From a bacterium (GTDB lineage: Bacteria > Patescibacteriota > Minisyncoccia > UBA6257 > Colwellbacteraceae), in contig JAJYME010000004.1 of assembly GCA_021787205.1 (NCBI GenBank), forward strand, positions 39,063-103,062: a DNA stretch of 64,000 bases, read 5' to 3'. Below the pieces are notes generated by a model. It had not been told where the DNA came from. It did not search any database and saw only the letters and a list, made by a program, of their open reading frames with translations. Shown here piece by piece: positions 12,347-61,771 of the stretch. The translations under genes and the position numbers were made by a program. Numbering within the stretch: the stretch's first letter is position 1; the number at the start of each line of letters is the position of its first letter.

Positions 12347-12426
12347 GAAAATATTCTAACAGTTATCAACCTTTGTAGCCAGGGGGAGACGACCCCCACA
12401 AATCTTGACTGTTTGGTTAATTGGGA

Positions 12427-12432
12427 TATAAT
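12427..12432 (+). promoter_or_regulatory. Candidate -10 element TATAAT upstream of the intron-containing tRNA
   Basis: gggatataatg lies 36 nt before the tRNA 5' end. Confidence 0.3.
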
Positions 12433-12467
12433 GATTAGGTACCTAAAAGAGGGTATAAATCGAATAT

Positions 12468-12768
12468 TCCCCTGTAGCTCAGTGGTAGAGCGGCTCGCTG
12501 TGGCTTAACGCAGCCTCCGAAAGTAATTTCGGTTGAATAACAAGGTGAATTCGGGGAAGTCCTGACCCATAAAGACAGGATAATCCCGAGCCAAGCTCTG
12601 ATAATTATCAGAGAAGGTGTAGAGACTATCTCGAAAGAGAGTACTTTTCCGACGAACGGAACGGGAAGCGCCTTGCATCCATTTTGGATGATGATATAGT
12701 CCATCCCTTTTAGTAATAGAAGGACAAGTGTAACGAGATGGTCGTAGGTTCGAATCCTACCGGGGGAG
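12468..12768 (+). tRNA. tRNA (anticodon GUU, Asn, after splicing) interrupted in the anticodon loop by a 229-nt group I intron; CCA is not encoded
   Basis: 5' exon (12468-12501): TCCCCTG TA GCTC AGTGGTA GAGC G GCTCG CUGU. 3' exon (12731-12768): UAA CGAGA TGGTC GTAGG TTCGAAT CCTAC CGGGGGA G. The 7-bp acceptor and the D and T arms are intact. Joining the exons gives the loop CUGUUAA. The overall sequence closely parallels E. coli tRNA-Asn as I recall it, including the G73 discriminator. Confidence 0.7.
12502..12730 (+). ncRNA. Group I intron (self-splicing type) within the tRNA anticodon loop
   Basis: The conserved group I elements appear in order. P-like: GAAUUCGGGGAAGUCC. Q-like: AUAAUCCCGAGCC (UUCGGG pairs with CCCGAG, P4). 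R-like: GUAGAGACUAUC. S-like: GAUAUAGUCC (GACUA pairs with UAGUC, P7). Other features: a P2 hairpin CCGAAA-GUAA-UUUCGG; a P6-like 8-bp hairpin CUCUGAUA/UAUCAGAG; a P1 pairing of exon GCUGU with intron GCAGC with U-G at the splice site; a terminal G at 12730; and a possible P10 UAA/UUA. Confidence 0.8.
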
Positions 12769-12775
12769 CATAATA

Positions 12776-60255: not shown

Positions 60256-60972
60256 AAGAACTCAATGAAACTTCGCATCCAAAAATATTTATCCGAACAG
60301 GGAATATGCTCCCGCCGTGAAGCGGAGGATCTTATAAGAAGGGGACTTATCTCAGTAAACGGCCAGGTGGTAAGGGAGATGGGTGTCCAAATCGATCCGG
60401 AGACGGACAGGGTCGAGCTTCTCGACCGGGGTCGGGAGGTTATGACGGAAAAGACGACAATCGCTTTGCATAAACCAAGAGGCTTGGTTTGCTCTCGAGA
60501 TTCTTCTGAAGGGGAAACCATATTTGATGCGTATCCTCAATTTCTTCCCTTGAACATCGTCGGTCGTCTCGATAAGGACAGTGAAGGATTGATTCTCATT
60601 TCCAATGATGGCGCCATCACGAAAGCGGTGACGGGGGATAGACACGTGACCGAGAAAGAATATGAAGTGACCGTCAGGGAAGACATCCCTTCGAATATGA
60701 AGCGCCTTTTTGAGGCCGGCATCGAGTTGGAGGACGGACCTACCCTTCCAGCAAAAGTGAGGTTGATAAGCCCGCATACCTTTGTCATCGTTATTCGTGA
60801 AGGGAGAAAACATCAAATACGCAGGATGTGCGAGTTTATGCGACTGACCGTAACGAAGCTGAAAAGGATAAGGATAGCCCATATTTCCCTTTCTAACCTC
60901 AGAGCCGGGGAATATCGCGTCTTAACCAAAGAGGAGGTGGCGCCGCTCAGGGAGGCGGGAAAGACGGCCTAG
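60256..60972 (+). CDS. Pseudouridine synthase, RsuA/RluB family (S4 domain + catalytic domain)
   Basis: The S4 domain LRIQKYLSEQGICSRREAEDLIRRGLISVNG is followed by the catalytic-Asp motif VGRLDKDSEGLILISNDG. Confidence 0.8.
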   Translation, partial: KNSMKLRIQKYLSEQGICSRREAEDLIRRGLISVNGQVVREMGVQIDPETDRVELLDRGREVMTEKTTIALHKPRGLVCSRDSSEGETIFDAYPQFLPLNIVGRLDKDSEGLILISNDGAITKAVTGDRHVTEKEYEVTVREDIPSNMKRLFEAGIELEDGPTLPAKVRLISPHTFVIVIREGRKHQIRRMCEFMRLTVTKLKRIRIAHISLSNLRAGEYRVLTKEEVAPLREAGKTA

Positions 60973-60999
60973 CTAGCCCTCGACACCCTCTTGACAGCT

Positions 61000-61491
61000 T
61001 TTAGCCTTGGGAATAGAATTAAATCAGAACCTCGAAAAGTATGTTCGTGGTCAATCTTTTATACAAGGGAGGGATGCTATGAGCTCAGGACCTGAAGGCA
61101 AGCCCAAGAGGCTTTCACCGATCCGGGTCGTCCTTGATGCCATTCGCGGTGTCAAATTCGCTCCAGCTCCATTTCCGTCTACCTTTTTGAACATCCCGTT
61201 TTGTTCCGTTCCAGCGAGTCCCGTCGGCCGTTCCGGCTTCGGGTCCCATCTGGCCGCTCATACCCGAGCGGTTAGGCCCCCCTAGCGGAGCCGTAAAGCC
61301 CAAAGACGCTTTCGGCTTCTGTCGGACCGTCAGGCCCCCGTAACGGAGCCCAAAACCAAGCGGTTTCACCCCGAGTAACTACGCAGTGAAAGGGAGGCGC
61401 CGACGCAACAAGGTACCAACGATCGTCCCAGAAAAAAAGAACCACACAACCGGGGCCCATTCTCATTCGAATGGGCCCTTTTCCTTTTCTT
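61000..61491 (+). ncRNA. Candidate structured non-coding RNA (identity undetermined): a GC-rich segment ending in a strong intrinsic terminator
   Basis: Local GC is clearly higher than in the flanks. The overlapping ORFs have implausible G/P/R-rich translations. An internal repeated motif AGGCCCCC(C)UAGCGGAGCC / AGGCCCCCGUAACGGAGCC is present. The terminator is GGGCCCATTC TCATTC GAATGGGCCC TTTTCCTTTTCTT (61453-61491). Confidence 0.3.
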
Positions 61492-61495
61492 GGAA

Positions 61496-61524
61496 TTGAA
61501 AAAGGAATGAAAAATTGATAATAT
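61496..61524 (+). promoter_or_regulatory. Promoter TTGAAA-17-TAATAT for tRNA-Ala
   Basis: The hexamers are at 61496-61501 and 61519-61524; the tRNA 5' end lies 13 nt downstream of the -10. Confidence 0.5.
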
Positions 61525-61537
61525 GAAGATAAAAAAC

Positions 61538-61608
61538 GGGCTCGTAGTTAAACGGCAGAACGGTACATTCGCATTGTACAGATAGGGGTTCAATTCCCCT
61601 CGAGTCCA
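61538..61608 (+). tRNA. tRNA-Ala (anticodon CGC) with the G3-U70 identity pair; CCA not encoded
   Basis: GGGCTCG TA GTT AAACGGCAG AAC G GTACA TTCGCAT TGTAC AGAT AGGGG TTCAATT CCCCT CGAGTCC A. Confidence 0.85.
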
Positions 61609-61640
61609 CAAATTGAACCGCCGGAAGCCCGCAATATTTT
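61587..61640 (+). repeat. Direct repeat copy 1: the tRNA-Ala 3' 22 nt plus ~32 nt of downstream flank (copy 2 at 61696-61750)
   Basis: ggt(t)caattcccctcgagtccacaaattgaaccgccggaagccc(g/a)caatat appears twice, 109 bp apart, in the same orientation. Confidence 0.75.
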
Positions 61641-61695
61641 TTTCATTGGCGGGCTGAGGCGCGGCCCGAAGGAAATCCGCAGGATTTACCTGAGA

Positions 61696-61750
61696 GGTCA
61701 ATTCCCCTCGAGTCCACAAATTGAACCGCCGGAAGCCCACAATATATTTT
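61696..61750 (+). repeat. Direct repeat copy 2 (a partial tRNA-Ala 3' end that is not a complete tRNA)
   Basis: See copy 1. The upstream sequence gcgggctgaggcgcggcccgaaggaaatccgcaggatttacc does not fold as a tRNA 5' half. Confidence 0.75.
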
Positions 61751-61771
61751 TATTGACAAGAAGTTTGAAAA

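Follow-up and report, generated by a model that had tools for sequence, protein, structure and literature searches.

A candidate small mRNA with a twice-used R-x-V-R-P-P-stop ending in an intergenic region of a Colwellbacteraceae genome

What is encoded in the GC-rich stretch that separates an RNA pseudouridine synthase gene (rluF) from tRNA-Ala(CGC) in an uncultured member of the Colwellbacteraceae? The stretch, here called the element, lies at about 61000-61491 of the window, by which we mean the whole 64,000-nucleotide (nt) piece of contig JAJYME010000004.1 (assembly GCA_021787205.1) that was analysed; the nearest named relatives of the organism are Candidatus Colwellbacteria and other Parcubacteria of the Candidate Phyla Radiation (CPR). 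A sequence-only reading had taken the element for a structured RNA rather than a protein gene, regarding its overlapping open reading frames (ORFs) as nonsense and a twice-occurring 20-nt motif as a signature of RNA. Comparison of three species (the window and contigs L013 and L014) points instead to a small messenger RNA (mRNA) with two coupled ORFs that share the ending R-x-V-R-P-P-stop and are followed by a conserved structured tail. We hold this to be, on balance, the probable explanation, under which the element would not be a purely non-coding RNA.

A complete HMMER search for the plus-strand ORF at 61079-61285 (ORF1) in 1.84 billion representative proteins returned one match, P0002, a protein of 68 amino acids (aa) encoded on L013 that aligns end to end at 50% identity (E 3.5e-11) and is the sole homolog found in protein databases. 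The sequence-only reading had itself named a protein with detectable homologs among the findings that would tell against a structured RNA, and such a homolog has been detected. The third species, L014, was found through synteny and carries an ORF1 homolog of 66 aa. The order rluF, element, tRNA-Ala(CGC) is common to all three, and L013 and L014 share a layout of rluF, promoter, Shine-Dalgarno (SD) sequence and ATG, an ORF of 66-68 codons, conserved tail, terminator, promoter and tRNA-Ala(CGC). Their rluF genes are 81% (L013) and 85% (L014) identical to that of the window, and two further contigs, L015 and L016, are sequence-identical to L013 over the element region. The element is absent beside rluF in relatives whose rluF is 78% identical or less; in a search for rluF synteny among GTDB genomes the closest relative was 70% identical and likewise without it. 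Contig L025 stops just past rluF, so it is uninformative on the presence of the element. Peptide patterns and a tRNA-Ala pattern run against Joint Genome Institute metagenomes gave no further homologs, viral contigs, phages and plasmids held no relevant ones, and no paralogs occur in 207 kb of sequence.

The pattern of substitution in ORF1 is that of a protein-coding gene. An SD sequence, AAGGGAGG, is kept 5-6 nt ahead of the ATG in the three species and the stop codon stands in a conserved context. The frame is 68, 68 and 66 codons long (204, 204 and 198 nt from start to stop, the differences being multiples of three), and it stays open over these 66-68 codons even in the AT-rich relatives. 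Between the window and L013, 76 of the 204 positions differ, falling on codon positions 1, 2 and 3 in the numbers 21, 21 and 34, and in the ORF1 frame the proportion of synonymous differences (pS) is 0.62 against 0.29 for nonsynonymous differences (pN), a pN/pS of 0.47 (Fisher p 5e-5). The same ratio is 0.98 and 0.87 in the other sense frames and 1.04, 0.57 and 0.92 in the antisense frames, where 0.57 belongs to the frame that shares its wobble positions with ORF1. The BLOSUM62 similarity of the two proteins is 164, compared with 91 +/- 19 for randomly placed substitutions, a score reached by 1 of 2000 permutations. In the flanking rluF, synonymous positions have almost reached saturation across these genomes (pS 0.66-0.72), and the conservation of ORF1 therefore reflects selection. 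These comparisons show ORF1 to encode a 68-aa basic protein under frame-specific purifying selection, and the view that the overlapping ORFs are all nonsense has to be given up.

The predicted protein has an isoelectric point of 11.7 in the window (10.4-12.0 across the three species) and contains a conserved stretch prone to form a helix, D-[AV]-I-x-G-[VI]-[KR]. The protein has no match in Pfam, NCBIfam, PHROGs, PADLOC or PDB, nor among ribosomal-protein families. Public annotation (metagenome-assembled genome GCA_027424005.1, contig DAIBYJ010000006.1) lists only a minus-strand ORF of 64 aa here, at 61272-61466. Because this ORF has no homolog beyond itself among 5.8 billion clusters and overlaps the terminator and both copies of the repeated motif, the annotated gene is probably a spurious call. 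A frameshifted minus-strand pseudogene was also considered and rejected, the 64-aa ORF being without homologs and the minus frames without a coding signature apart from the wobble-sharing one. Gene calls of the region are inconsistent among the relatives, with a plus-strand ORF in L013 and L014 and a minus-strand ORF in L015 and L016. Ahead of ORF1 in the window there is also a 13-codon upstream ORF (61041-61082, ATG TTC GTG ... CTA TGA) whose stop overlaps the ORF1 start (ATGA). In its frame the window and L013 give a pS of 0.75-0.84, a pN of 0.07-0.14 and a 3-nt indel, figures that come from a handful of substitutions only; L013 is without its ATG and stop, and it is absent in L014.

The duplicated motif is equally a matter of coding sequence. 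Its copies (61274-61292 and 61332-61350) are identical at 17 of 19 positions and sit within a 27-nt repeat of 81% identity (61271-61297 and 61329-61355). In 500 dinucleotide shuffles the best 19-mer pair reached 16/19 and none equalled the observed repeat, so the duplication is non-random. Copy 1 with the three codons that precede it reads R-A-V-R-P-P-TAG, the end of ORF1, and copy 2 with its upstream codons reads R-T-V-R-P-P-TAA, the end of a second short frame, ORF2. Followed from the Arg codon at 61268 and 61326, the copies differ at five positions, three of them synonymous (CGA/CGG, GTT/GTC, CCC/CCG), the remaining two being the stop (TAG/TAA) and an Ala-to-Thr change (GCG/ACC). Read codon by codon in this way, the supposed RNA motif is shown to encode a hexapeptide at the C-terminus together with its stop, in two consecutive frames. 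A six-frame search of 217 kb for [RK]x[VIL][RYK]PP-stop found this pattern twice per element in each of the three species and nowhere else; the endings seen are RAVRPP, RTVRPP, RSVYPP and RIIRPP, with the consensus R-x-[V/I]-[R/Y]-P-P-stop.

Judged from its signals, 60991-61489 is one independent, unannotated transcription unit with an mRNA of about 460 nt, and its parts and neighbours are as follows.

60265-60972: RNA pseudouridine synthase gene (rluF), with S4 and PseudoU_synth_2 domains.
60991-61019, plus strand: sigma-70-type promoter, TTGACA-17 nt-TAGAAT, 11/12 consensus matches.
61026-61078, plus strand: 5' untranslated region (UTR), the transcript start being placed near 61026; SD sequence GGGAGGG(A) at 61067-61074.
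61079-61285, plus strand: ORF1, 68 codons and TAG.
61274-61292, plus strand: motif copy 1, AGGCCCCCCTAGCGGAGCC, comprising the last Arg-Pro-Pro codons of ORF1, TAG and GGAGCC.
61293-61343, plus strand: ORF2, conserved part, (V)KPKDAFGFCRTVRPP and TAA, in the +1 frame relative to ORF1.
61332-61350, plus strand: motif copy 2, AGGCCCCCGTAACGGAGCC, comprising the last Arg-Pro-Pro codons of ORF2, TAA and GGAGCC.
61344-61451, plus strand: conserved non-coding 3' region, with a helix strand, a 23S-like block, CA-rich AACCACACAA and a clamp strand.
61452-61489, plus strand: intrinsic terminator, with a stem of 11 bp and a T tract.
61496-61609, plus strand: neighbouring unit outside the element, a promoter-like site and tRNA-Ala(CGC).

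The unit is regarded as separate because its promoter and terminator hold their positions in the three species and compensatory changes are present in the stems of the terminators. The promoter position is filled by TTGACA-17-TATAGT in L013 and by TTGACT-17-TATACT in L014. The terminator stem (61452-61479) has 11 pairs, seven of them G-C, and is followed by TTTCCTTTTC on the plus strand; the terminators of L013 and L014 stand at the same place with different stem sequences and compensatory pairs. tRNA-Ala(CGC), at 61538-61609 and 100% identical in all three species, has a promoter-like site of its own, TTGAAA-17-TAATAT with TG, at 61496-61524, which is kept in the relatives. The sequence-only reading was right on the terminator hairpin and its T tract, on the promoter of the tRNA and on the separateness of the unit, the upstream promoter being missing from its list. 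Its picture of a GC-rich segment in an AT-rich genome holds, the second half in mild form: GC reaches 0.595-0.63 in 200-nt segments at 61100-61399 and up to 0.66 in 120-nt segments, and the whole window stands at 0.452, a slight AT bias. This richness in GC is confined to the one species, ORF1 and the tail (61079-61451) having 58% GC here compared with 45% in L013 and L014. Within ORF1, A, P, G and R stand in the window where the relatives have the hydrophobic residues I, F, L and M, and the hydrophobic centre of the relatives' proteins is thereby lost.

ORF2 carries a coding signature of its own. Between the window and L013 its frame has a pS of 0.63 and a pN of 0.11, while the other two frames have a pS of 0.10 and a pN of 0.27-0.30; in each of the three species pairs pS is higher than pN in this frame and in no other, and a separate scan gave an F1 signal at 61298-61340. 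The sole indel is of 3 nt (relative to L013), and the stop is TAA in all three species. The frame reads (V)KPKDAFGFCRTVRPP-stop in the window, (TTG)KPKTFGFYRTVRPP-stop in L013 and ...NYCFERIIRPP-stop in L014, with the Arg codon AGG in two species (the window included) and CGT in L014.

The arrangement around the two stops suggests how the frames could be linked. The G-rich stretch after each stop is complementary to the two Pro codons, and each copy can fold with its stop in the loop of a hairpin. At the end of ORF1 the Pro-Pro codons (CCNCC) have, in each species, a possible pairing partner immediately beyond the stop, an SD-like element rich in purines; by inspection the partners are GGAG in the window, GAGG in L013 (ACCU/AGGU) and GUGG or GGUGG in L014 (CCAC/GUGG or CCACC/GGUGG). 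A stop-in-loop hairpin with an SD-like element is a classic geometry for translational coupling. A ribosome finishing ORF1 would melt hairpin 1 and so free the purine-rich element that the Pro codons sequester. In the relatives, coupling or reinitiation would then bring about translation of ORF2 from TTG or GTG starts, L013 having a TTG 9 nt past the ORF1 stop and L014 a TTG and a GTG preceded by AAGGTGG. In the window, translation of ORF2 would need a +1 slip on CCC CCC UAG, or would not occur. A slip of this kind by tRNA-Pro could read CCT AGC... into ORF2 and give an 87-aa product, and the C6 run (CCCCCCT context) is identical in three independent assemblies. The conserved R-x-V-R-P-P ending would probably pause ribosomes at both stops, because a C-terminal Pro-Pro before the stop is an intrinsically slow termination context and because arrest peptides with Arg...Pro-Pro are known. 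Small proteins with C-terminal Arg-...-Pro-Pro motifs are indeed established ribosome-arrest peptides (PMC12992588, PMC10951233). The tail, with its 23S-like hairpin, its pairing with the 5' UTR and the terminator, would probably set the stability and translatability of the message.

Several observations weigh against this two-ORF explanation. The ORF2 statistics come from 13-15 codons in three species. The frame of ORF2 relative to ORF1 is +1 in the window, +2 in L013 and 0 in L014 (there after two stops), so it is not a conserved recoding event. In the window the ORF2 frame has no ATG, GTG or TTG start, with GTA where L013 has TTG. The +1 slip fits one species only: the window has CCC CCC TAG, from which the +1 frame runs open into ORF2, and L013 and L014 have CCA CCT TAG. 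We infer stalling by analogy, from the motif alone, and the motif differs from the experimentally defined R-[A/G]-P-[P/G], which is why the element is not filed in the RAPP-like family. ORF1 itself is fast-evolving, with a middle part that is nearly unalignable and an L014 copy far more diverged than the L014 rluF; the constraint on it may act chiefly at the two termini. An AlphaFold2 model of ORF1 built from a two-sequence alignment has a predicted local distance difference test score of 56, which is poor. The SD of ORF1 is paired in full-length folds, yet this pairing is lost with slightly different transcript ends, and its occlusion is no greater than for ordinary genes. The folding z-score of the element, -2.6 to -2.9, lies within the range of 16 control windows (mean -1.3 +/- 1.3, minimum -3.9). 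As to the rate of change, rluF of L015 and L014 are close (pS 0.43, 86% nt identity) and the ORF1 copies of these two are only 57% identical (pS 0.83, pN 0.48); it looks as if the element outpaces its neighbour in evolution or has had a separate history.

If the 5' part is coding, what is the tail? Between 61344 and the terminator no reading frame is conserved; several blocks are conserved nonetheless, and the identity of the tail between the window and L013 is about as high as that of the coding part (66% versus 68%, with about 49% for shuffled sequences). The last 110 nt or so before the terminator are a conserved non-coding RNA with plausible hairpins, and to this extent, as in the separateness of the unit and its place outside the known RNA families, the sequence-only reading stands, though not in taking the whole for RNA. 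In a consensus fold a helix encloses the motif-2 hairpin and shows C-G to U-A changes in L014, and the CA-rich segment as well as ACCACACAA, which adjoins the terminator, are kept in all three species. The L014 tail also has an insertion of about 60 nt with a duplicated GUUUUAC segment (element at L014 3690-4097). A tail block at 61367-61401, with counterparts at about 450-482 in L013 and 4029-4058 in L014, resembles 23S rRNA: compared with E. coli 23S nt 236-268, the block is identical at 28/33 positions in L013 and at 25/30 in L014 (E 2e-4 to 1e-3), a score not reached in any set of 200 shuffles. Within the block stands GUAGCGGCGAGCGAA, which is nearly universal in 23S rRNA. The copy in the window has diverged further and has no significant blastn match, its small stem being kept through a G-C to A-U change. 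The 23S-like hairpin may reflect mimicry, shared ancestry or chance, and a search of the literature on proteins that bind the 23S hairpin gave nothing useful. This block of about 33 nt was the only one to survive blastn and nhmmer comparison with the E. coli rrn operon; a colinear likeness of the whole element to the 23S 5' end or the 16S 3' end was at shuffle level and was discarded.

The conservation of the tail, its 23S-like block in L013 and L014 and the kept segment by the terminator all speak for the best-surviving alternative, a dual-function RNA, in which the conserved 3' part of the mRNA, possibly a small RNA (sRNA) derived from the 3' UTR, would act as a regulator or decoy. Either the 23S-like hairpin would mimic the rRNA site of a ribosomal or rRNA-binding protein, or the CA-rich AACCACACAA, a short way ahead of the terminator, would act in single-stranded form. 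We consider this unlikely, although it deserves attention: the block in the window itself is far less 23S-like, no ribosomal-protein gene lies nearby, no conserved internal promoter occurs in the window, L013 or L014, and the covariation term of the consensus fold, -1.55 kcal/mol, is weak with three sequences.

A bolder extension of the two-ORF explanation is distinctly speculative, and we give it little credence. The element would be a translation-sensing cassette, in which two ORFs carry a new termination-arrest motif with their stops in hairpin loops. The first stall would license ORF2 or the +1 slip, the second would remodel the 3' RNA including the 23S-like hairpin, and for a reduced CPR cell the transcript would serve as a readout of termination, elongation factor P (EF-P) or release-factor capacity, or else of how ribosomes are assembled.

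The proposal of a purely non-coding structured RNA, either a novel sRNA or a very divergent RNase P, transfer-messenger RNA (tmRNA) or signal recognition particle (SRP) RNA with incidental ORFs, can draw on a promoter and terminator that enclose no annotated product, on full-length folds with z-scores of -3.9, -4.3 and -5.3 in the three species, and on the 19 pairs of the consensus fold that have changes on both sides. It has become improbable: the frame-specific coding signatures in two frames argue strongly against it, as does an ORF that stays open in AT-rich relatives, and the z-score is ordinary against genomic controls. Nor do known families help. Rfam, searched on both strands at the gathering score and at E<=10, the relaxed scan that had been suggested, identified no family in the element of the window, L013 or L014. 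RNase P RNA (RNaseP_bact_a/b) had no covariance-model match on either strand in any of them at the same limit, and ARAGORN found no tmRNA. SRP RNA, 6S RNA and the other 4227 Rfam families were likewise absent from 61020-61490, bar one chance-level match to Twister-sister on the minus strand (14.6 bits, E 6.3); the sole tmRNA_permuted match (13.8 bits, E 2.1) lies on the tRNA-Ala 3' end, outside the element. The sequence-only reading had found no confident match to RNase P RNA, tmRNA or SRP RNA, and the searches bear it out; its suggestion of a divergent CPR version of one of these is excluded as far as Rfam and ARAGORN reach. RNase P-like minus-strand motifs and a group II domain V (GAGCCGUA...) picked out by eye scored no better than shuffles.

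Equally improbable is a module resembling type I toxins such as hok or AapA1, built on a self-locked mRNA whose paired ends would hide the ribosome-binding site until 3' processing. Folding predicts for each of the three species that the 5' UTR pairs with a stretch of the 3' UTR close ahead of the terminator to form a clamp (61046-61070 with 61425-61446 in the window), the partner sequences of L014 being wholly unrelated to the others. The SD is paired in full-length folds and the small protein is fast-evolving. A hydrophobic centre is present in the proteins of L013 and L014 (Kyte-Doolittle 19-residue maximum 2.06 and 1.93). Against this, the window protein lacks it (0.87) and all three proteins are strongly basic; the clamp is marginal relative to shuffles, of which 0.015-0.17, depending on the species, reach the observed energy; the SD occlusion is not robust; there is no PADLOC match; and a sigma-70 consensus scan, the only kind of scan made, found no minus-strand promoter-like site for an antisense RNA within the element in any of the three species. 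RNAduplex applied to the whole 5' UTR and the whole 3' UTR was uninformative, as large loops are allowed.

A leader-peptide attenuator, in which the position of ribosomes on ORF1 and ORF2 would decide the terminator at 61452-61479 and so tune read-through into tRNA-Ala(CGC), has in its favour that the element always lies directly upstream of the same tRNA gene and that two short ORFs with pause-prone endings precede the terminator, but it is the least likely of all because the tRNA has its own conserved promoter and inspection found no conserved antiterminator pairing (GGCCCC against the terminator GGGGCC in the window only), and it further suffers from ORF2 stops that are 105-146 nt away from the terminator and from a lone GCG codon near the ORF1 end, read by this tRNA, that is not kept in L014.

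The surroundings of the element have features of their own. The last 20 nt or so of tRNA-Ala(CGC) and about 34 nt downstream are repeated 108 nt on (61590-61643 and 61698-61751, 54 nt, 96% identical); L013 has an analogous duplication (661-720 and about 805-860) around an insert of about 145 nt, and in L014 there is none, the tRNA running directly into an ABC-F-type gene. These duplications of a tRNA 3' end look like the attL/attR scars of integrative elements. The genes downstream in the window (126, 217, 224, 224 and 203 aa) have no Pfam matches, and two Logan assemblies break within tRNA-Ala(CGC). Elsewhere in the window a group I intron at 12409-12723 (flanks 12406-12775; Rfam 78.8 bits, E 2.4e-18) seems to split a tRNA-like gene, of which the 5' half TCCCCTGTAGCTCAGTGGTAGAGCGGCTCG (about 12468-12497) and the 3' half GGTCGTAGGTTCGAATCCTACCGGGGGAGCA (about 12740-12770) have complementary acceptor strands; it has a promoter upstream and a terminator downstream, and ARAGORN did not call it. 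No rRNA was found in the 64-kb window.

Taken from sequence comparison, ORF1 and its relatives are an orphan small-protein family with an unusual twin ending, which occurs in three uncultured CPR species and corresponds to no database family, being absent from Pfam, NCBIfam, PHROGs, PADLOC, PDB and Rfam. The locus illustrates that a GC-rich, hairpin-rich intergenic region resembling a structured RNA can be a small-protein gene. To our knowledge almost nothing is known of translational control in CPR bacteria, and stalling by R-x-V-R-P-P-stop, if true, would extend arrest-peptide biology to this group; if the ending is a mere structural feature of an orphan protein, the finding is an ordinary one.

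How does the element compare with known systems? The hok-type and AapA1-type toxin mRNAs belong to type I toxin-antitoxin systems, and the element resembles them in its compact mRNA of 400-500 nt, its small ORF and the long-range 5'-3' pairing predicted near the ribosome-binding site; it differs in that no antisense promoter was found and that its product is basic and, in the window, not hydrophobic. Dual-function RNAs such as S. aureus RNAIII/hld, SgrS/SgrT and B. subtilis SR1/SR1P are similar transcripts of about 0.5 kb with an ORF in the 5' half, a structured non-coding 3' half, their own promoter and terminator, and C-rich hairpin segments. The C-rich segments of the element are Pro codons paired in stems, in contrast to exposed loops, and the element family is confined to three uncultured CPR species.

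Leaders that stall at termination form a third group. In E. coli TnaC ends in ...HRP-stop and the upstream ORF2 of cytomegalovirus UL4 ends in ...IPP-stop, and a C-terminal Pro-Pro has been linked to SsrA tagging. The element likewise has conserved prolines before the stop, an Arg or hydrophobic residue upstream of them, a short ORF and a regulatory-looking transcript. Unlike these leaders it has no evident ligand or downstream regulated gene, it carries the ending twice in consecutive ORFs, and ORF1 with its 68 codons is much longer than a typical leader.

The RAPP-like and SecM-type arrest peptides (ApdA, ApdP, ApcA and SecM; PMC12992588, PMC10951233, PMC7897499) differ from the element in several respects. 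Their motif is R-[A/G]-P-[P/G], compared with R-x-[V/I]-[R/Y]-P-P directly before the stop here, and here V or I, rather than R, stands two residues ahead of the first Pro. In the R-A-P core of the RAPP-like peptides the Arg is irreplaceable and few substitutions are tolerated (PMC12992588). Downstream of ORF1 there is no gene for Sec, YidC or another protein, only the mini-ORF with the same ending and then the terminator. The likeness to these peptides lies in the overall design: in two of the three homologs a basic N-terminus is followed by a hydrophobic segment, which resembles the monitoring substrates, and in both groups the C-terminal Arg...Pro-Pro is conserved while the N-terminus and the middle are free to vary.

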